From NCBI GenBank assembly GCA_038065915.1, contig JBBTPZ010000002.1, positions 18,714-69,625 on the forward strand: 50,912 bases of DNA, in the 5' to 3' direction. Both the position numbers and the translations under genes were made by a program. The stretch's first letter is position 1, and each line of letters opens with the position of its first letter. The stretch is from Patescibacteria group bacterium. Its GTDB lineage: Bacteria; Patescibacteriota; Minisyncoccia; Phycocordibacterales; 21-14-all-36-13. Shown here piece by piece: positions 4,419 through 45,180 of this stretch. The notes under the pieces are model-generated. The model made no database searches, was not told the DNA's origin, and saw only the letters and a list, made by a program, of their open reading frames with translations.

Positions 4419-4456
4419 TCTACACCTATCTCTGCTATCGCAAAGATAAGTGTAGA
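4419..4456. repeat. family A hairpin (core CTGCTATCGCA, stem class TCTACA)
   Basis: TCTACACCTATCTCTGCTATCGCAAAGATAAGTGTAGA. Two C-A mismatches become G-U pairs on the minus-strand RNA. T6 follows on the minus strand. Confidence 0.9.
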
Positions 4457-4460
4457 GACT

Positions 4461-5009
4461 TTATAATTCAAATTCATCCTTTAATAAATCTTCATTACTG
4501 ATTTTTTCTGTTTCAAGAAAGATTATGTGTTTTGAAACACCAAAATATTCTCCAATAAATTTGATTTCCTTTTTGCATTCATATGGGGTAATAAAAACCG
4601 ATTTCTGTATTGGAGCACATCCAATTCTTATCAATTTTAGGGTTAATCCATCTCTGGCTGTTTTATGTTTTTCTGGAATATCAAACATTATTATTCTCCA
4701 AATCCCATCCCACCCCTTTTGCTCTTTTATCTTTATTTCATCTATTTTGTATTTCAAAATCTCTTTTCTTCCATTTTCTGTTATTTCAATTACATCAATT
4801 CCTTCTTTTTTATATTTTTTAACATATTTTTTGTTTTCTAATCTATCTATTGCTCGTCTAATTTTCTCCTTTTCTTTCCATGCTTCCGCATCAAACATTT
4901 TATAGACAAGAGGTAATTGTGGAAGTGCCATAGAACCAATTACAAAAGTTGCCCCCACTATTGCTTTTAATATATCTTTAGCTAATTCTCCTCTACTGTG
5001 TTTTTTCAT
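4461..5009 (-). CDS. PaaX-family / Cas2-fold-like small protein, paralog 1 (182 aa)
   Basis: WDGIWRIIMFDIPEKHKTARDGLTLKLIRIGCAPIQKSVFITPYE matches the Cas2-like beta-alpha-beta core seen in PaaX-type proteins. Collinear paralog at 41512..42060. Confidence 0.8.
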   Translation of the reverse strand: MKKHSRGELAKDILKAIVGATFVIGSMALPQLPLVYKMFDAEAWKEKEKIRRAIDRLENKKYVKKYKKEGIDVIEITENGRKEILKYKIDEIKIKEQKGWDGIWRIIMFDIPEKHKTARDGLTLKLIRIGCAPIQKSVFITPYECKKEIKFIGEYFGVSKHIIFLETEKISNEDLLKDEFEL

Positions 5010-5050
5010 ACAAATTATTTTTTGAATGCCACCTTACCCCTCTACATCTA

Positions 5051-5088
5051 TCTCTGCTATAGCAGAGATAGATGTAGAAAGAATTTCT
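5051..5088. repeat. family A hairpin (stem class TCTACA)
   Basis: Perfect palindrome TCTACATCTATCTCTGCTA/TAGCAGAGATAGATGTAGA, ~40 nt upstream of the paralog 1 start. Confidence 0.9.
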
Positions 5089-5174: not shown

Positions 5175-5214
5175 TTCTACACTTATCTTTGCTATCGCAA
5201 AGATAAGTGTAGAA
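5175..5214. repeat. family A hairpin (stem class TCTACA)
   Basis: TTCTACACTTATCTTTGCTATCGCAAAGATAAGTGTAGAA, directly after the murG stop. Confidence 0.9.
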
Positions 5215-6547: not shown

Positions 6548-6716
6548 TAAAAAATCAAAATGAAAAATAATTATCCCTTCGGGAGATCTCCCGTAGGGAG
6601 ACAATGTAAAATATTAAAGTTACTGAACAAATTTTCTGAAAGAAAATTTGCAACTAATCTTTTGTTCGCCTTCGGCGAACTCCATAACTTTACACTTTGA
6701 GATTTACACTTTGCAT
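6548..6716. repeat. family D composite repeat (~150-170 bp; modules CCCTTCGGGAGATCTCCCGTAGGG, AAATTTTCTGAAAGAAAATTT, TTCGCCTTCGGCGAA, TTTACACTTTG)
   Basis: Abuts the ftsW stop. An inverted homologous copy lies at 7826-7990 and a direct copy at 33443-33592. Confidence 0.85.
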
Positions 6717-7825: not shown

Positions 7826-7990
7826 TAGAAAGTTAAAAATGCAAAAATCAAAATGCAAAGTTGTCGTATCCGCCGAAGGCGGACGAACAATTAGTTATAA
7901 ATTTTCTTTCAGAAAATTTACTCAATGATTCTAACATTTTAAATTGTCTCCCTACGGGAGATCTCCCGAAGGGATGGTCATTTTACACCT
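7826..7990. repeat. family D composite repeat, inverted relative to 6548-6716
   Basis: The reverse complement aligns module by module with 6575-6716. Abuts the ftsW start. Confidence 0.85.
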
Positions 7991-9549: not shown

Positions 9550-10480
9550 CAATATCAACCAATTTTTTCATATCCTTAAACCTCCCTTCTTTGGTTGAAC
9601 CAAGAACGGAAATTATTATTGGTCGCATCATTCCATTATCAAAAGCCACTACAAGATTTCCTCCCGCCAAATCCGTATAACCGGTTTTTGAAGCTATCAC
9701 CCAAGGTATCTTATTTATAATTTCGTTAGTATTTTCTGTATTGTGAATTTTATTATCTTCAGATTTTAATTCCAATTTATTGTAGGAAGTAACCTCGAGT
9801 ATTTCTGGTTTATTTCGAACCATATAATCAAAAAGCATAGCAACATCTTGTGCTGAACCATAAGAGCCACTTAAAGATTTTTCATCAATATCTAATCCGG
9901 ACTCATTTAAAAAGTATGTCTGTTTCAGATTTAATTCTTTGGCTTTTTTATTCATTTTTTTAACAAACGACATTTCTTCCACACCGTTTTTATTTTTTGT
10001 GAACGATTGAACCGCAGAAGCAACTGCGCTTGCACCATCGTTTGACGAAGAAATAAGTGTAAAATCTATTAAATCTTTTAAATTCCATTTCTCGTTTTTT
10101 ATAAGTCCACCATTCCCATTTTTTTCATCAATATTTACTATTATATTTTTATTTTCATATTCACTAGCAATTAATGCTGTCATAATTTTTGAAAGAGATG
10201 CAAGTGGTAATTGTGCTTCTTTGTTTTGTGAAAAAATTTCTTTTTGGTTATAAACATCCCAAATAAACACGGCTTGCGCTTCAAGTCGTGCGTCTTTTAT
10301 TTTTTGAGCTATATTGTTAACAATATCTGTTTTTTGTATAGAAATTTCCGACTCGCTTTCTTTTTTTTCTGGGAAAGATATGTAAACAATTGAAAAAAAT
10401 AATAATACTATTGCAATAGAAAAAATAAATTTAATTAATCCTTCCTCTGGTTTTATTGTATTTTCTTCCATTTCGTCCAT
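9503..10480 (-). CDS. serine-type D-Ala-D-Ala carboxypeptidase (PBP5/S11-like)
   Basis: SLSK (SxxK), SSND (SxN) and KTGYT (KTG) motifs; N-terminal TM anchor. Confidence 0.9.
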   Translation of the reverse strand: MDEMEENTIKPEEGLIKFIFSIAIVLLFFSIVYISFPEKKESESEISIQKTDIVNNIAQKIKDARLEAQAVFIWDVYNQKEIFSQNKEAQLPLASLSKIMTALIASEYENKNIIVNIDEKNGNGGLIKNEKWNLKDLIDFTLISSSNDGASAVASAVQSFTKNKNGVEEMSFVKKMNKKAKELNLKQTYFLNESGLDIDEKSLSGSYGSAQDVAMLFDYMVRNKPEILEVTSYNKLELKSEDNKIHNTENTNEIINKIPWVIASKTGYTDLAGGNLVVAFDNGMMRPIIISVLGSTKEGRFKDMKKLVDIVMDSNSNVSREYLNP

Positions 10481-10486
10481 GATTAG

Positions 10487-10534
10487 TTTACCCCGTGGAA
10501 TAAAATTCTAAAGAATTTTATTCCACGGGGTAAA
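10487..10534. repeat. perfect 22-bp-stem hairpin with a 4-nt loop
   Basis: TTTACCCCGTGGAATAAAATTC-TAAA-GAATTTTATTCCACGGGGTAAA, 6 nt upstream of the carboxypeptidase start. Confidence 0.9.
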
Positions 10535-10575: not shown

Positions 10576-10677
10576 TGCCCCGTTAGAAATTCGGATGCTT
10601 TTAACGAACATTCTAATCCATAATTTTTTTTGTTTGATTTTTAAAGTTATTCGCCCTTAACGAACTTCTAATGGGGT
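10576..10677. repeat. long-range inverted repeat plus direct repeat TTAACGAAC(A)TTCTAAT x2
   Basis: CCCCGTTAGAAATTCG pairs with CGAACTTCTAATGGGG. The right arm abuts the scpB stop. Confidence 0.7.
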
Positions 10678-16819: not shown

Positions 16820-16856
16820 AATCCCTCTCTGCTAGCAGAGAGGGATTTTTTATTTT
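16820..16856 (+). terminator. intrinsic terminator; variant of the family A core (CTCTGCTAGCAGAG)
   Basis: AATCCCTCTCTGCTAGCAGAGAGGGATT plus a T-run. Confidence 0.75.
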
Positions 16857-16915
16857 TTGAAAAAAGTTGAATTAACTATTTGACAAACGCTATATGTCTT
16901 AGCATATACATACTA

Positions 16916-17012
16916 CAGCCAATTTAAATTTAATTTATTGTCAAATTAATAATACTCCATAGGGTCGCCATATCTCTGCGATAGCAGAAATATGGCGACC
17001 AGTTTTTGTTTT
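16916..17012 (+). ncRNA. candidate small RNA 3 (weak)
   Basis: TTGACA at 16880-16885 with an imperfect -10 (CATATA/TATACA). No ORF. Ends in the family A hairpin 16963-17000 plus TTTTTGTTTT. Confidence 0.3.
16963..17000. repeat. family A hairpin (stem class GTCGCC)
   Basis: GGTCGCCATATCTCTGCGATAGCAGAAATATGGCGACC. Confidence 0.9.
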
Positions 17013-23992: not shown

Positions 23993-24083
23993 CAAAAGAT
24001 TAAACCACTTTCTAATTCGCGCGAATTAGAAAGTGGTTTCTGCCTAGTAATTTAGTGATTTTATGTTTTTAAAAATACAAAAT

Positions 24084-24955: not shown

Positions 24956-25330
24956 TTAAATTTTTACTTTTAAGTATTCTTTTATTCTTTCTTTATCTTC
25001 TATTTCTTTTTCACCTTTGAAATAAATTCCAATAAAATCTACTATTTCAGTTTCTATATGAAAAGCATATATAATCCTTATGCCACTTTTTATACCGCGT
25101 CCTTTTAGTGACTTACAGGCAAATTTTTTGAGTTTGCAGATTATTATTTTTTCAGAACAAAAATTAGGAATTGGAAATATCGCTTGCTTATTTATTTTTT
25201 GTAAATGAAATAATTCAATAGCAAAAGTTTTTGCTGTTTCAATATCTTCATTAAGGGAGGAAAATTTTTTTAGAAGTTCTTTAAGATCCTTTTGAAATTC
25301 TTTTGTATTTTTATAATTAATCTTCGCCAT
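24956..25330 (-). CDS. RelE/HigB (Gp49-like) superfamily toxin candidate
   Basis: GIKSGIRIIYAFHIETEIVDFIGIYFKGEKEIEDKERI resembles the RelE/HigB C-terminal core. 14-nt overlap with the upstream antitoxin gene. Confidence 0.65.
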   Translation of the reverse strand: MAKINYKNTKEFQKDLKELLKKFSSLNEDIETAKTFAIELFHLQKINKQAIFPIPNFCSEKIIICKLKKFACKSLKGRGIKSGIRIIYAFHIETEIVDFIGIYFKGEKEIEDKERIKEYLKVKI

Positions 25331-26096
25331 AGATTCTCACCGATGTTTCTGGAGTCCTATAAAATACTGACTCATAGCTTATAATTTTACCATCTTCCGT
25401 CCCTACCCATGGCACATCTTTGTGAGAATAGTCACTTAATTCCATTGCAGATTTATCAGAAAGTCTAAAAAGAACATCATCAATATGTTTTATTTCTTGA
25501 GCATTTAAAATAGAAATATTAGATTGTCTACGAGGTAAATATTTCGTTTGTTCATGTAAAAAGTATTTACTTTTTACTGTTTCTAATTCCCCTTTTGATT
25601 CTAAACTTTCAACGATTTTTTTAAATTCCACGGGGGTTGGGCCAAAATGATTTTTTATATATGTTGCCCCAAGTAATTGTTCTTCAAATTTTTCGTAATA
25701 ATCAAAATCAATAAAATAAAGGAGTTTATATAAAACCGTCATTCCAACATTTGGTTTACTGCCAACTTTTTCTAATATATACAATAATACTTCTTTAAAT
25801 TTTTTAAGATTTTTTTGTGGTATATCAATACGAATTTCTTGCACTTCCTTTCTTTTTTTTTCTTTCTTAAAAAAAATTTTTATTTCAGAATTTTTTTTAC
25901 CAGCAATTAGTGCTTCAAGAGAAAGATTAAAAATTTCAGCAATTTTTTGAGCCTGTGAAAGAGTTAGTTCTTTTGTTCCCTTCTCAATTTCAATATAACT
26001 AGCTCGAGAAACACATATCTTTTGAGCCATAAAGGCCTGAGAAAGATTATTGATTTTTCTCAATTCTAATAGAAATGTATGTTTAATCATATTCAT
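25317..26096 (-). CDS. XRE-family HTH fused to a DUF4065 (Panacea/SocA-like) antitoxin domain
   Basis: HTH: LSQAFMAQKICVSRASYIEIEKGTKELTLSQAQKIAEIF. DUF4065-like: VLYKLLYFIDFDYYEKFEEQLLGATYIKNHFGPTPVEF. The start is ATG 26096 or 26090; the ORF-track start at 26162 is a TTG. Confidence 0.8.
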   Translation of the reverse strand: MNMIKHTFLLELRKINNLSQAFMAQKICVSRASYIEIEKGTKELTLSQAQKIAEIFNLSLEALIAGKKNSEIKIFFKKEKKRKEVQEIRIDIPQKNLKKFKEVLLYILEKVGSKPNVGMTVLYKLLYFIDFDYYEKFEEQLLGATYIKNHFGPTPVEFKKIVESLESKGELETVKSKYFLHEQTKYLPRRQSNISILNAQEIKHIDDVLFRLSDKSAMELSDYSHKDVPWVGTEDGKIISYESVFYRTPETSVRIYGED

Positions 26097-26098
26097 AT

Positions 26099-26126
26099 AG
26101 TATAGTCGTAAAAAATCATATGTCAA
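26099..26126 (-). promoter_or_regulatory. leaderless-type promoter TTGACA-N16-TATACT
   Basis: TGTCAA at 26121-26126 and AGTATA at 26099-26104 on the + strand. ATGs lie 2 and 8 nt downstream. Confidence 0.55.
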
Positions 26127-26206
26127 TATTTTAGACAAACCAAATGTGGATAAACTTGACAAGCAAAAATTGAAAATAAAACAATCGTCATTTTTCTTGT
26201 TTTTTT

Positions 26207-26238
26207 GTCCCCCTGTGGGAGATCTCCCGTAGGGGGAC
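26207..26238. repeat. GGGAGATCTCCC-module hairpin (family D module)
   Basis: GTCCCCCTGTGGGAGATCTCCCGTAGGGGGAC, between the dnaJ stop and the TA promoter. Confidence 0.8.
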
Positions 26239-27442: not shown

Positions 27443-27482
27443 ATTATGGATTCAAACGCTCATTAAGAGCGTTTGAATTATG
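27443..27482. repeat. family B hairpin
   Basis: ATTATGGATTCAAACGCTC-ATTAA-GAGCGTTTGAATTATG. Confidence 0.85.
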
Positions 27483-27483
27483 A

Positions 27484-27514
27484 ATGAAAATTGTCGCTAA
27501 ACGACAATTTTCAT
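27484..27514. repeat. family C hairpin
   Basis: ATGAAAATTGTCGCTAAACGACAATTTTCAT. The right arm contains the dnaK TGA stop. Confidence 0.85.
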
Positions 27515-29385
27515 TTAGTTTCCGCGTCGTGTATCGTTCCATCATCTTCTTTTTTTCCTTCTTCTGGCTTTGTTTGTGTTTGCGCATTTTTTTGAATTTC
27601 TTCTCCTATTTTAGACATCTCGGAAGATAGTTCTTCTGTTGCCTTTTTAATCTCATCCACTTCATTCCTATCTTTTATTTTTTTAGCATTATCAATTTTT
27701 TCCTGTAAGTTTTTCTTTAAATCATCTGAAATTTTATCAGAATTTTCAGACAATGACCTTTCTGCGGTATAAACAACTTGGTCTAAAAAATTTCTTGCAT
27801 CCATTAATTCTTTTTTCTTTTTGTCTTCTTCTTCGTGTAATTCAGCATCTTTTTGCATCTTTTTTATATCATCTTCAGACAATCCGGATGTTGCTTCTAT
27901 TTTTATTGATTGTTCTTTTCCTGTTGATTTATCTTTTGCTTTCACATTGAGAATTCCGTTTGCATCTATATCAAAAGTAACCTCAATCTGCGGCATTCCT
28001 CTTCTTGAAGGAGGTATTCCATCCAAAACAAATCTGCCCAAACTTTTGTTGTCATTTGCCATAGGTCTTTCTCCTTGGACAACATGAATTTCAACGGATG
28101 TTTGATTGTCAGCAGCGGTAGAAAAAACTTGTGATTTTGATGTAGGTATTGTTGTATTTCTTTCAATTAATTTAGTTGCAACACTACCAAGAGTTTCTAT
28201 ACCAAAAGATAGTGGAATTACATCAAGAAGTAAAACATCTTTTACATCGCCTCTTAAAATTCCAGCTTGAACAGCAGCACCCAAAGCAACCACTTCATCC
28301 GGGTTAATTGACTTGTTTGGTTCTTTCCCGAATAAGTTCTTTACGGCTTTTTGAATCGCAGGCATCCTTGTCTGTCCGCCAACAAGAACTACTTCATCTA
28401 TATCAGAAATTTTAAATGGGGATGCTTCCATGGCTCTTTTTGTTATTTCAATTGATTTATCAATATATTCTTTAACTAAATCTTCAAGCTTTGCTCTTGA
28501 AAATTTCATTAATAAATGTTTGGGACCATCGGCATCTGATGTTATAAAAGGTATATTTATTTCTGTTTCGGTAGAACTGGACAATTCGTGTTTTGCTTTT
28601 TCAGCCGCTTCGTCCAATCTTTGTAGCGCCAAAGAATCTTTTGTAATATCTATGCCACTTTCTTTTTTAAATTCACTAGCAATCCATTTTATTATTTTTT
28701 GGTCTATATCTTTTCCGCCCATATGACTATCGCCGTCTGTTGATTTAACTTCAACCACATCATCTCCCACTTCAAGAACGGAAATGTCAAATGTTCCGCC
28801 ACCAAAATCAAAAACTACTATTTGTTCATTTTTCTTTTTATTAAAACCATAAGCCAGAGCGGCTGCGGTCGGTTCATTTATAATTCTTTTTACATCCAGC
28901 CCGGCTATTTTACCGGCATCTTTTGTCGCCTTTCTTTGTGAATCATTAAAATACGCGGGAACAGTAATAACGGCCTCTGTTATTTTTTCTCCTGTTTTTG
29001 CCTCCGCGTCGGTCTTTATTTTTTGAAGTATTATTGCAGAAATTTCTTCCGGTCTATATTTTTTATCCCCGAGTGTAATTAAAACTCCACTGTCATTTCC
29101 TTTGGTTATTTCGTAGGGGACAATTTCTTTATCTTTTTGGACTTCCTTATCGTCAAAACGATGTCCCATAAATCTTTTTATTCCAAAAACCGTATTTTTA
29201 GGGTTAGTAACCGCCTGTCTTTTGGCAGAAATTCCAACAATTCTTTCGCCAACTTTCGATAAAGCAACAATAGACGGTGTGGTTCTAGCCCCGTCAGAAT
29301 TTTCTAAAATTTTTGGTTCTCCGCCCTCAATAACGGCAAAAGCTGAATTTGTCGTTCCTAAATCAATTCCTAAAATTTTGCTCAT
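27511..29385 (-). CDS. dnaK: chaperone DnaK (Hsp70)
   Basis: [17 protein letters not shown] and [10 protein letters not shown] motifs; 624 aa. Confidence 0.98.
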
Positions 29386-30158: not shown

Positions 30159-30310
30159 GGAGCATAACACAAAAAAAATAATTATGGATTCAAATGCTCC
30201 CATGGAGCATAACACAAAAAAAATAATTATGGATTCAAATGCTCCCATGGAGCATAACACAAAAAAAATAATTATGGATTCAAATGCTCCCATGGAGCAT
30301 TTGAATTATG
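30159..30310. repeat. tandem repeat, 45-bp unit x3 plus a terminal complete family B hairpin
   Basis: Units GGAGCATAACACAAAAAAAATAATTATGGATTCAAATGCTCCCAT at 30159, 30204 and 30249. No spacers. Confidence 0.9.
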
Positions 30311-30311
30311 G

Positions 30312-30342
30312 ATGAAAATTGTCGCTTGACGACATTTTTCAT
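30312..30342. repeat. family C hairpin
   Basis: ATGAAAATTGTCGCTTGACGACATTTTTCAT, directly after the rpsI stop. Confidence 0.85.
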
Positions 30343-37601: not shown

Positions 37602-37784
37602 ACTATTTACTATTTAATTATAGCACATAAAAAAATTAAATCTCAAAAATTAAATCTAAAATCTGCCAATTTAAAAAATATTCGGGTTTTAATTGCATAT
37701 TTTTATAAACTGTGTAATAATAATTTGCAGAGAGTTCATTCATTAGAACTCAGATTGATCAAACATTTAAAAAAGGAGAAATTT

Positions 37785-37985
37785 GTGAAAAACAGCCGAA
37801 TCCCAAACAAAAAAAACAACTCTTCTACTTTAATCAAAACAGAGTTGCCTATACAAATTCAAAATTTATCTTCATCTTCATGCTCATCTTCTTTCAATAA
37901 GCTGGAACAGTATAGAGATGAGTCCAGTGTTAGTAGAAATAATTCCCCAACCGTTCTCAGACCACGGTTGGTTCACATTTTTTGA
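37785..37985 (+). CDS. possible 66-aa Ser-rich peptide (GTG start) or non-coding transcript
   Basis: AAGGAG lies 6 nt before the GTG. The ORF runs into a terminator hairpin at 37947-37971. Low complexity. Confidence 0.3.
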   Translation: MKNSRIPNKKNNSSTLIKTELPIQIQNLSSSSCSSSFNKLEQYRDESSVSRNNSPTVLRPRLVHIF

Positions 37986-38032
37986 TCAATCTATTTAAAA
38001 AAAATCCTGTCATTGACAGGATTTTTATTTTT
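37947..38032 (+). terminator. two consecutive intrinsic terminators
   Basis: CCAACCG..CGGTTGG plus a T-run, then AAAAATCCTGTCA-T-TGACAGGATTTTT plus a T-run. Confidence 0.65.
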
Positions 38033-38058: not shown

Positions 38059-38098
38059 AGGTCGCCATATCTCTGCTATCGCAGAGATATGGCGACCT
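38059..38098. repeat. family A hairpin (stem class GTCGCC)
   Basis: AGGTCGCCATATCTCTGCTATCGCAGAGATATGGCGACCT, perfect, just after the alaS stop. Confidence 0.9.
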
Positions 38099-41421: not shown

Positions 41422-41463
41422 AATTTTATTTTAACATATTTTCCATAAACTTTTGTAAAAACA

Positions 41464-41503
41464 AGGTCGCTCTATTTTTGCGATAGCAGAAATAGAGCGA
41501 CCT
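41464..41503. repeat. family A hairpin (stem GGTCGCTCTAT, core inverted: GCGATAGC)
   Basis: AGGTCGCTCTATTTTTGCGATAGCAGAAATAGAGCGACCT, just after the paralog 2 stop. Confidence 0.9.
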
Positions 41504-41511
41504 TAAATAAT

Positions 41512-42060
41512 TTACAACTCAAACTCATCTTTTAAAGAATCTTCATTACTAATTTTATTTGTTTCAAGGAAAATTATATGTTTTGCAATATCGAAGTATT
41601 CTCCAATAAATTTAATCTCCTTTTCGCATTCGTATGGACTAACAAAAACCGATTTTTGTATTGGAGCACAACCCATTTTTATCAATTTTAAGGTTAATCC
41701 ATCACGAGCCGTTTTCTTTTTTTCAGGAATATCAAACATTATTATTCTCCAGATGCCATCCCATCTTTTTTGTTCTTTTATTTTTATTTCGTCTAATTTA
41801 TATTTTAAAACTTCTTTTCTTCCATTTTCAGTTATTTCAACGACATCAATCCCTCCTTTTTTATATTTCTTTACATATTTTTTATTTTGTAATCTATCCA
41901 TTGCTTTTCTTACTCTTTCCTTTTCTCTTTTGTCTTCCGCATCAAACATTTTATAAATCATGGGTAGTTGTGGTAATGCAAGAGAAGAAACAAGAAATGC
42001 TGTTCCAACAAGTCCTTTTAAAATATTTTTCATTATTTCTCCATTTCTATATTTCTTCAT
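41512..42060 (-). CDS. PaaX-family / Cas2-fold-like small protein, paralog 2 (182 aa)
   Basis: Gap-free alignment with 4461..5009. By eye about 40 differences in 182 positions. Confidence 0.8.
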   Translation of the reverse strand: MKKYRNGEIMKNILKGLVGTAFLVSSLALPQLPMIYKMFDAEDKREKERVRKAMDRLQNKKYVKKYKKGGIDVVEITENGRKEVLKYKLDEIKIKEQKRWDGIWRIIMFDIPEKKKTARDGLTLKLIKMGCAPIQKSVFVSPYECEKEIKFIGEYFDIAKHIIFLETNKISNEDSLKDEFEL

Positions 42061-42098: not shown

Positions 42099-42138
42099 GA
42101 GCCCACCCTACTCTGCTATCGTAGAATAGGGTGGGCTC
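42099..42138. repeat. family A hairpin (stem class GAGCCCACCC)
   Basis: GAGCCCACCCTACTCTGCTATCGTAGAATAGGGTGGGCTC. Confidence 0.85.
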
Positions 42139-42215: not shown

Positions 42216-42260
42216 ATCACCATTTATTATTTTTCGTGTTATTATTTTCCATTTATTCTA

Positions 42261-42300
42261 TAGTCGCCACATCTCTGCTATCGCAGAGATGTGGCGACTA
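42261..42300. repeat. family A hairpin (stem class GTCGCC)
   Basis: TAGTCGCCACATCTCTGCTATCGCAGAGATGTGGCGACTA, perfect. Confidence 0.9.
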
Positions 42301-42312
42301 TTATAAAATATA

Positions 42313-45042: not shown

Positions 45043-45086
45043 AAAAGTCGCCGTATCTCTGCTATCGCAAAGATACGGCGACTTTT
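45043..45086. repeat. family A hairpin (stem class GTCGCC)
   Basis: AAAAGTCGCCGTATCTCTGCTATCGCAAAGATACGGCGACTTTT. Confidence 0.9.
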
Positions 45087-45123
45087 GTTATTAAATTTTG
45101 AATTGTAGATTTGAGATTTTTTA

Positions 45124-45162
45124 ATCTGCGTTCATCTGCGCTTGTTATCTGCGTTTATCTGC
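45124..45162. repeat. ATCTGCG short direct repeats x4 (10-12 nt period)
   Basis: Contains the 17-mer ATCTGCGTTCATCTGCG, also found inside mnmA at 48386-48402. Confidence 0.85.
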
Positions 45163-45180
45163 AAATTTGCTGGAAGCAAA

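Follow-up and report, generated by a model that had tools for sequence, protein, structure and literature searches.

A 50,912-nt stretch of contig JBBTPZ010000002.1 from a Patescibacteria group bacterium (the window in what follows) contains nine near-perfect palindromes, here called Family A, and six of them surround two paralogous genes that each encode a truncated PaaX-like protein of 182 amino acid residues. Judged from the sequences, the Family A elements are probably double-stranded DNA palindromes of ~40 bp that act as the cognate sites of this protein, which would bind them as a homodimer; we hold this reading with moderate confidence. The conserved core is predicted to be the site of the PaaX-like protein on duplex DNA because the gene is bracketed by the palindromes, because this arrangement recurs across the Patescibacteria, and because the residue following the FDIP motif of the protein tracks the central bases of the palindrome. 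A first-pass annotation of the window had proposed that the core is a recognition site, which is supported by the same three lines of evidence. It had overlooked the partner gene, on which an understanding of the element hinges. No published description of this partnership was found: a literature search, in which not all journals were covered, gave no paper tying PaaX-like proteins to Patescibacteria or to such palindromes, and nothing relevant on palindromic hairpins in Patescibacteria or on repetitive extragenic palindromes (REP) and their tyrosine transposases (RAYT) in candidate phyla.

Family A palindromes and their partner gene in the window

The window has a GC content of ~30%, belongs to the Patescibacteria/Paceibacterota and consists of housekeeping DNA with nearly all genes on the - strand, among them murG, ftsW, mraY, several aminoacyl-tRNA synthetase genes, dnaK/dnaJ/grpE and ribosomal protein genes. 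The nine palindromes are 38-44 bp long, and their arms of 16-20 pairs enclose a centre of 4 nt (Table 1). All share a 20-bp core, ATCTCTGC-KATM-GCAGAGAT, whose centre is TATC, GATA or TATA in the window. The nine copies listed in the first-pass annotation were all recovered with the 16-nt core CTCTGCTATCGCAGAG when up to 2 mismatches were allowed, whereas dinucleotide-preserving shuffles of the window gave 0 matches. The 16-nt core, which had been called invariant, is exact in only 2/9 copies, the remainder showing 1-2 transitions or a flipped centre. The outer arms vary between copies yet stay complementary, and the paired stem changes that had been described (CATAT/ATATG, CACAT/ATGTG, CGTAT/ATACG and CTCTAT/ATAGAG) were all present. 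A covariance model, which had been suggested as a check, was built from 50 copies and recovered exactly the nine copies in the window at 38-68 bits, with both strands scoring about equally and the next-best match at only 24 bits; the list of copies is therefore complete. The element at 16820, which had been counted as a variant, is a doubtful member. Its score lies at the level of generic hairpins, and because of its GCTAGC centre and T-run it is probably an ordinary terminator of the + strand. Folded as RNA, the nine copies reach -31 to -38 kcal/mol (z = -8 to -11). Scans of the window for Rfam families, tRNAs and tmRNA gave no matches.

Seven copies start 4-94 nt past a stop codon, as expected from the claim that most copies sit at gene 3' ends, but the remaining two precede the 182-residue genes by 31 and 38 nt. 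Only the copies at 16963, 38059 and 45043 are solo, and those at 16963 and 38059 are identical 38-bp units at unrelated sites. Both paralogs have the same layout, with one copy 4-7 nt past the stop codon, one 31-38 nt before the start and a third 96-121 bp further upstream, just past the stop codon of the preceding gene.

The two paralogs are 78% identical. Each consists of a winged helix and a Cas2-like PaaX_M domain (the 'PaaX central Cas2-like domain') and ends there, lacking the C-terminal effector domain PaaX_C. Matches to Cas2 profiles were weak in Pfam and likewise in PADLOC. An AF2 model of paralog 2, with a predicted local distance difference test (pLDDT) score of 80.6, shows the winged helix followed by a ferredoxin-like domain. 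When this model was compared with the PDB by Foldseek, the best match was E. coli PaaX (8a39), followed by the PaaX-like regulators 3kfw and 3l09 and then by Cas2 proteins; a PDB sequence search with the family profile or with the Cas2-like domain alone gave only marginal matches. The Asp of the FDIP motif (D110), which we take to be the position of the Cas2 catalytic Asp, is invariant in the family.

The neighbours of the paralogs are murG, the uracil-DNA glycosylase (UDG) gene, an M16 peptidase gene and alaS, and no paa genes are present. Paralog 1 keeps its position after mraY-ftsW-murG in L159-L161 (such labels denote loci of relatives), and paralog 2 is syntenic in L001 and L004 (UDG - gene - M16 peptidase - alaS). 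As both paralogs are syntenic in relatives, the gene cassette appears to be old and stable, and recent mobility of the cassette in the window was rejected on the same grounds. An extended -10-like sequence, TGATATAAT, is found at 42085-42077 between the 42099 palindrome and the ATG of paralog 2. We read it as a putative promoter element of paralog 2, in which case the -35 region would fall inside the palindrome. The PaaX-like family comprises 996 clusters at 50% identity with E <= 1e-30, or 3334 with E <= 1e-10. More than 560 family loci were found in species-representative genomes, nearly all of them Patescibacteria and often several per genome, and their members are currently annotated mostly as hypothetical, 'PaaX' or 'Cas2'.

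Table 1. Positions of the Family A palindromes, the two PaaX-like genes and the doubtful variant in the window
Feature	Positions	Strand	Context	Score
Family A palindrome, TCTACAC arm class	4419-4456		4 nt past paralog 1 stop	53.7 bits
Paralog 1, 182-aa PaaX-like protein	4461-5009	-		Pfam PF20803 E = 2e-20
Family A palindrome, perfect, centre GCTATAGC	5041-5078		31 nt upstream of paralog 1 start codon	
Family A palindrome	5175-5214		5 nt past murG stop, 96 nt upstream of 5041 copy	60.2 bits
Perfect 28-bp palindrome, doubtful variant, GCTAGC centre then T-run	16820-16847	+		22.7 bits
Solo Family A palindrome, GGTCGCCATAT arms (as in 38059 copy)	16963-17000		38 nt past histidine-kinase gene stop	
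Solo Family A palindrome	38059-38098		20 nt past alaS stop	66.9 bits
Family A palindrome	41463-41504		7 nt past paralog 2 stop	
Paralog 2, 182-aa PaaX-like protein, FDIPE motif with D110 and E113	41512-42060	-		Pfam PF20803 E = 3e-21
Family A palindrome, GAGCCCACC arms	42099-42138		38 nt upstream of paralog 2 start codon	47.8 bits
Family A palindrome	42260-42301		11 nt past UDG stop, 121 nt upstream of 42099 copy	68 bits
Solo Family A palindrome	45043-45086		convergent intergenic region, 94 nt past DUF7282 gene	

Association and covariation across the Patescibacteria

The association of the gene with palindromes was counted at 81 non-redundant family loci from diverse Patescibacteria, a long palindrome being defined by at least 14 pairs. 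Long palindromes were present on both sides of 25/81 family genes and of 15/1026 other genes (odds ratio 30, p = 1.6e-20), and the density of palindromes within 200 bp of a family gene was 19 times that elsewhere. They had a median length of 40 bp (range 27-74), and the upstream one ended a median of 18 nt before the start of the open reading frame (ORF). The flanking sequences are lineage-specific, and the two flanks of one gene are alike, the inner 14 nt being 79% identical compared with 42% between loci. Paralogs in the same genome each had their own matched pair (L011/L012, L014/L024, L047/L052 and L087). The centre was C[GT]AT[AC]G in 68/101 flanking palindromes, and TCATGA, CGACCG and CCATGG made up most of the rest. 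In L026 and L027, N-type members of the family have imperfect palindromes ~60-100 nt on either side of the gene, with complementary outer arms (TGACACCAAA...TTTGGTGTCA) and the centre GCCTACGC; since this centre is not symmetric, the subgroup may bind differently.

The residue that follows the FDIP motif, E113 in the proteins of the window, co-varies with the central bases of the flanking palindrome. Where it was E or D, the centre was TATA, GATC, GATA or GACC (KATM-type) in 48/51 proteins and was CATG or ATAT in none. All six proteins with H or S had the centre CATG, and all four with L, V or I had ATAT. Q was accompanied by CATG in 3 proteins and by a TATA-type centre of the KATM group in 2, K by AATT in one protein and N by TCGA in one. 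Fisher's test gave p = 2.8e-8 for H/S and p = 2.9e-6 for the aliphatic residues, with kinship ignored. A purely phylogenetic effect is argued against because the aliphatic-type proteins are mutually 25-34% identical, which is the background level, because the H and Q clades are separate, and because within the Q clade two loci of one genome differ, L011 combining Q with TCATGA and L012 E with CTATAG. Once the rule was apparent, it was tried on newly fetched loci of six further proteins whose residue is not E. The centre was CCATGG next to the gene of the H protein and GCATATGC for V and for I; both flanks had CCAATTGG for the K protein and CTCGAG for the N protein, and Q came with CTATAG and CCATAG. 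The rule was thus confirmed in part. Two positions from the dyad, E goes with A or C, which are amino bases, H and Q with G and the aliphatic residues with T, and such pairings would be sensible chemistry for a readout in the major groove.

The outer arms were analysed separately. A metagenome scan with the 20-nt core gave 71 loci, and in 56/72 hits the core lay inside a perfect palindrome of 30-62 bp with very diverse outer arms; hits to the bare core were mostly in high-GC contigs and are probably due to chance. For the covariation analysis, 50 distinct copies from the window and related genomes were used, which is the larger alignment on which the compensation of the stem changes had been proposed to stand or fall. 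In this set 86.7% of the cells pair, a percentage inflated by the choice of copies with at least 17/26 pairs, compared with 61.8% in shuffles and 36-47% in slid controls; the count of 56/72, which involved no such selection, agrees with this. The covariation score was 0.632 and that of the shuffles 0.170, with 0/500 shuffles reaching the observed value. At positions 11-19 from the centre, all four Watson-Crick pairs are used and >90% of the cells are still paired.

Orthologous sites showed the same behaviour. The flanks keep the 20-bp core while their arms are wholly different between genomes (TCTACA, CCTCTCCA, TGCCACG and CCTCGTTG) and still complementary, which together with the covariation score supports the claim that the complementarity is actively maintained. 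The orthologous copy of 5041 in L159-L161 has the same core and different arms, and the orthologues of 41463 in L001 and L004 have compensated arm changes. The copy downstream of alaS (38059) has no counterpart in the orthologous spacers of L001 and L004. At the site downstream of the DUF7282 gene, the window has a copy of the GTCGCC class, L004 a decayed copy of the TCTACAC class and L001 none. The flanks within one genome are often of one arm class, the GTCGCCATAT-core unit recurs in at least 5 flank contexts on related metagenome contigs, and relatives often have only the gene-flanking copies within 20 kb. By sequence comparison, Family A thus behaves in a concerted, REP-like manner at modest copy number. 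The possibility that the recognition helix simply co-varies with the core or the arms was looked at by eye, and no such relation was seen.

Proposed recognition of duplex DNA and the alternatives

Several features of the centres favour DNA over RNA as the form that matters. Their orientation relative to transcription is unbiased (TATC 8, GATA 6), most centres are self-palindromic (TATA 29, GATC 17), which applies in most lineages (CTATAG, CGATCG and TCATGA), mixed half-sites such as CGA joined to TAG occur freely, and wobble (G.U) pairs are rare. Of 102 palindromes, 99 were extragenic, the rate per spacer being 11.9% between convergent genes, 5.1% between tandem genes and 5.2% between divergent ones. 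Because of these features we favour duplex DNA, and a strand-specific RNA hairpin or one of the terminator type was not supported, given also the few T-tracts. The statement in the first-pass annotation that mismatches resolve to G-U on one strand only was overstated: of the arm mismatches in the window, inspected by hand, 5/7 were G.U on the - (gene-sense) strand and 2/7 on the + strand. Strict internal mismatches in the gene-flanking copies were compatible with sense-strand G.U in 22 cases and with C.A in 11 (p = 0.08), with 29 transversions and 33 transitions. The asymmetry was significant only with a loose definition of the stem (55 vs 21), and a strand-specific RNA signal was therefore not relied on.

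The palindromes would be contacted as follows. The Cas2-like dimer is proposed to sit on the dyad, where the residue after FDIP would read the base two positions from the centre, and the two winged helices would read the conserved inner arms, which could account for the invariance of the 20-bp core. A dimer on the dyad of a duplex explains both the residue-centre pairing and the free mixing of half-sites, which a tetraloop does not. The upstream site would overlap the promoter or leader of the gene itself, and this position next to the start codon suggests autoregulation. The other copies, whether downstream of the gene, after neighbouring genes or solo, might be extra sites that are copied around and turned over in a REP-like way. 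We suggest that the outer arms of the palindromes, free in sequence, are kept complementary because the element is used, or re-copied from arm to arm, as a hairpin or cruciform. Such re-copying could result from nicking at the dyad, with which the invariant Asp adjoining the specificity residue would be compatible.

A number of observations weigh against this proposal. A symmetric dimer on duplex DNA alone fails to explain the complementary variable arms, for which a hairpin, a cruciform or a copying step is needed. No promoter would be expected at three of the copies, such as that in the convergent spacer at 45043. The residue-centre statistics carry no correction for phylogeny, and the Q-type proteins are mixed. 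Proteins 33-45% identical to those of the window adjoin palindromes with the same 20-bp core (L113, L148 and L150), so that core and recognition helix are not simply co-varying, and orthologues with near-identical recognition helices have different outer arms. Finally, the mild sense-strand excess of G.U-compatible mismatches, under both the loose and the strict definition, leaves room for a role at the RNA level, and the 3-4 A-to-G changes in two copies of L004 are G.U-compatible only on the gene-sense strand. These copies, at 9820-9862 and 10590-10630, have CGGGGG(G/T) instead of CAGAGAT in one arm, and they are the best single hint of a constraint on the RNA, or of a copied variant.

Among the other explanations, a REP/RAYT-like system with a new enzyme is possible, though we consider it rather unlikely. 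The Cas2-like nuclease would nick the centre and copy the palindromes via hairpin intermediates, and the copies flanking the gene would mark the termini of what was once a mobile unit; the mechanism would account for the spread, the turnover and the perfect symmetry of the arms. Cognate palindromes on both sides of the gene, a pair for each paralog of one genome, the identical units at 16963 and 38059, the GTCGCCATAT-core unit as a master sequence, and the replacement of arm classes or the presence and absence of copies at orthologous sites all fit this explanation, as do the extragenic positions with enrichment in convergent spacers and the invariant D110 next to the specificity residue. On the other hand, PaaX and Cas2-like proteins are, to our knowledge, not known to transpose or nick DNA, both paralogs are syntenic and have been stable since at least ~80% amino-acid identity, and no target-site duplications were noted. 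Many lineages and close relatives show only gene-flanking copies within 20 kb, so that copy numbers appear low for a mobile family. Extended to the whole phylum, this would be a partnership in which a Cas2-fold PaaX-like dimer recognises long palindromes and nicks them at the dyad, thereby regenerating or spreading them, as a non-HUH counterpart of REP/RAYT that is re-programmable via the residue after FDIP (E, H/Q, L/V/I, K or N); we put this forward only tentatively.

Less probable still are two explanations at the RNA level. In the first, the palindromes are plain hairpins, acting as terminators (partly bidirectional) or as stabilisers of mRNA 3' ends, which are alike through duplication, with the PaaX-like gene being incidental. 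The stem-loops are indeed very stable, 7/9 follow a stop codon, A-runs and T-runs frame many of the copies found elsewhere, and the enrichment in convergent relative to divergent spacers is 2.3-fold. A T-run 3' of the stem, however, is mostly missing: only the copies at 38059 and 42099 (2/9) pass a terminator scan, and a T-rich tail follows 4/52 gene-downstream and 6/49 upstream palindromes. An intrinsic terminator was therefore rejected. Plain hairpins also leave unexplained the association with the gene family (p = 1.6e-20), a centre that is conserved phylum-wide and co-varies with a protein residue, the palindromic loop in random orientation, and the two window copies, and upstream copies generally, that lie just before a gene. 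A side effect on the RNA at 3' ends may nevertheless occur.

In the second, which we find just as improbable, the PaaX-like protein binds a hairpin of RNA (or single-stranded DNA) with the apical sequence CUCUGC-GAUA-GCAGAG and controls how transcripts, its own among them, are terminated, processed or stabilised. The Cas2 fold resembles the RNA recognition motif (RRM), and some Cas2/VapD proteins have been reported to cut RNA. The selected arm complementarity, the sense-strand excess of G.U-compatible mismatches and the two L004 copies that stay paired only through sense-strand G.U agree with such binding. It is opposed by the two-fold symmetry of the dimer, which suits a duplex dyad and not a tetraloop, by the independent mixing of half-sites with palindromic centres in unbiased orientation, by transversion mismatches as common as transitions, and by the closest characterised relative, PaaX, being a repressor that binds duplex DNA. 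Ordinary REP elements served by a HUH tyrosine transposase encoded elsewhere in the genome are very improbable, since, despite the REP-like size and extragenic position and a GTAG in the TCTACAC...GTGTAGA arm class, the consistently flanked gene is the PaaX-like one, most arm classes have no GTAG or CGTC tag, the palindromes are single and perfect and not REP doublets, and no transposase-like Pfam domain was found in 50 ORFs of the window (38 main ones at E <= 1e-5 or better, and smaller ones).

Relation to known systems and further features of the window

The partner protein resembles PaaX in its N-terminal winged helix and Cas2-like middle domain (Pfam PaaX_M; best fold match 8a39). PaaX is autoregulated. 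Its reported operator in E. coli, TGATTC-N27-GAATCA, extends over 39 bp (PMC9493321), and this inverted repeat would fit the geometry of the palindromes with their median of 40 bp. In contrast to PaaX, the phenylacetyl-CoA effector domain and the paa linkage are missing, which sets the protein apart from that family. The sites here are palindromic over their full length, have variable complementary arms, bracket the gene and also occur solo, and the Cas2-like FDIPE motif is invariant or linked to specificity in the family described here.

With REP/RAYT systems (REPINs), Family A shares extragenic palindromes of 20-40 nt, a partner gene of single or low copy number that is vertically inherited and flanked by cognate repeats, a repeat type for each paralog, and copies that are gained, lost and homogenised within the genome. 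It differs in that the flanked gene belongs to PaaX_M (PF20803) and not to the HUH/Y1 (IS200/IS605-like) transposases. There is no general GTAG/CGTC tag, since GTAG occurs only in the TCTACAC class and the GTCGCC, GCCCAC, CCTCGC and other classes are without it. The palindromes are near-perfect through the centre, no doublets were seen, and the copies per genome appear to be far fewer, with nine in 51 kb of which six adjoin the two genes. ParB/parS, MatP/matS and KorB/OB likewise combine a dimeric protein of the helix-turn-helix type with dyad sites that number from a few to dozens, some of them by its own gene, but these sites are 13-16 bp long, conserved in sequence and without long co-varying arms. 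Cas2 with palindromic CRISPR repeats is similar in having a dimer of the Cas2 fold, in which strand 1 ends in an Asp, and dyad-symmetric repeats adjoining the gene. Here, however, the window lacks Cas1, an array of evenly spaced direct repeats and spacers, and the repeats are self-complementary and separated by the gene or by 96-121 bp. The Family A system is thus neither a set of terminators, by its T-tracts, nor a CRISPR array, and combines traits of a repressor and its operator with REP-like traits.

The palindromes should not be labelled terminators or CRISPR-like repeats in annotation. A large protein family, among the most frequent uncharacterised small proteins in these uncultured bacteria, gains a testable 40-bp DNA target, and the relation of one residue to the central bases is a simple and falsifiable code. 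If the proposed recognition is true, a Cas2-fold domain would here read DNA sequence, which is unusual; if the nicking partnership were true, it might reveal how the link between palindromic repeats and proteins of the Cas2 fold first arose. The palindromes also pose the puzzle of what keeps ~10 variable base pairs per arm perfectly complementary.

Other repeats were seen in the window. A tandem pair of hairpins, ATTCAAAYGCTC-loop-GAGCRTTTGAAT followed by ATGAAAATTGTCG-loop-CGACAATTTTCAT, represents a second and a third hairpin family and is found at 27450-27515 and 30278-30342, in the dnaK-dnaJ spacer and, a second time, upstream of grpE. In relatives, hairpins of these types lie beside ribosomal-protein genes (L001 18259-18287 and 18840-18868; L004 854-892, 2601-2629 and 6771-6799), and they may be conserved regulatory or processing sites. 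Three palindromes with the common centre GGGAGATCTCCC (TCCCTTCGGGAGATCTCCCGTAGGGA and relatives), at 6574-6599, 7949-7974 and 26207-26238, form a separate repeat family. Two long perfect palindromes at 10487-10534 and 24002-24039, with arms of 23 and 19 nt, are unrelated to Family A and score ~21 bits in its model.

Between the hairpins downstream of alaS and the next gene, ~400 nt of non-coding sequence (37602-38000, - strand; L001 14560-14940) are conserved in a relative at roughly 80% amino-acid distance. No Rfam family matches this sequence, which may represent either an RNA missing from the annotation or a divergent small gene. Directly past the stop codon of the DUF7282 gene, heptamers resembling GCAGAT(A/T)A occur every 9-12 nt at ~45118-45165 (- strand), and this run is conserved in both relatives (L001 6745-6900; L004 6725-6770). 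On the - strand at 24956-26162, a gene with HTH_3 and SocA/Panacea antitoxin-like domains (25317-26162) overlaps an ORF of 124 residues without a family match (24956-25330), and the two may form a toxin-antitoxin pair.

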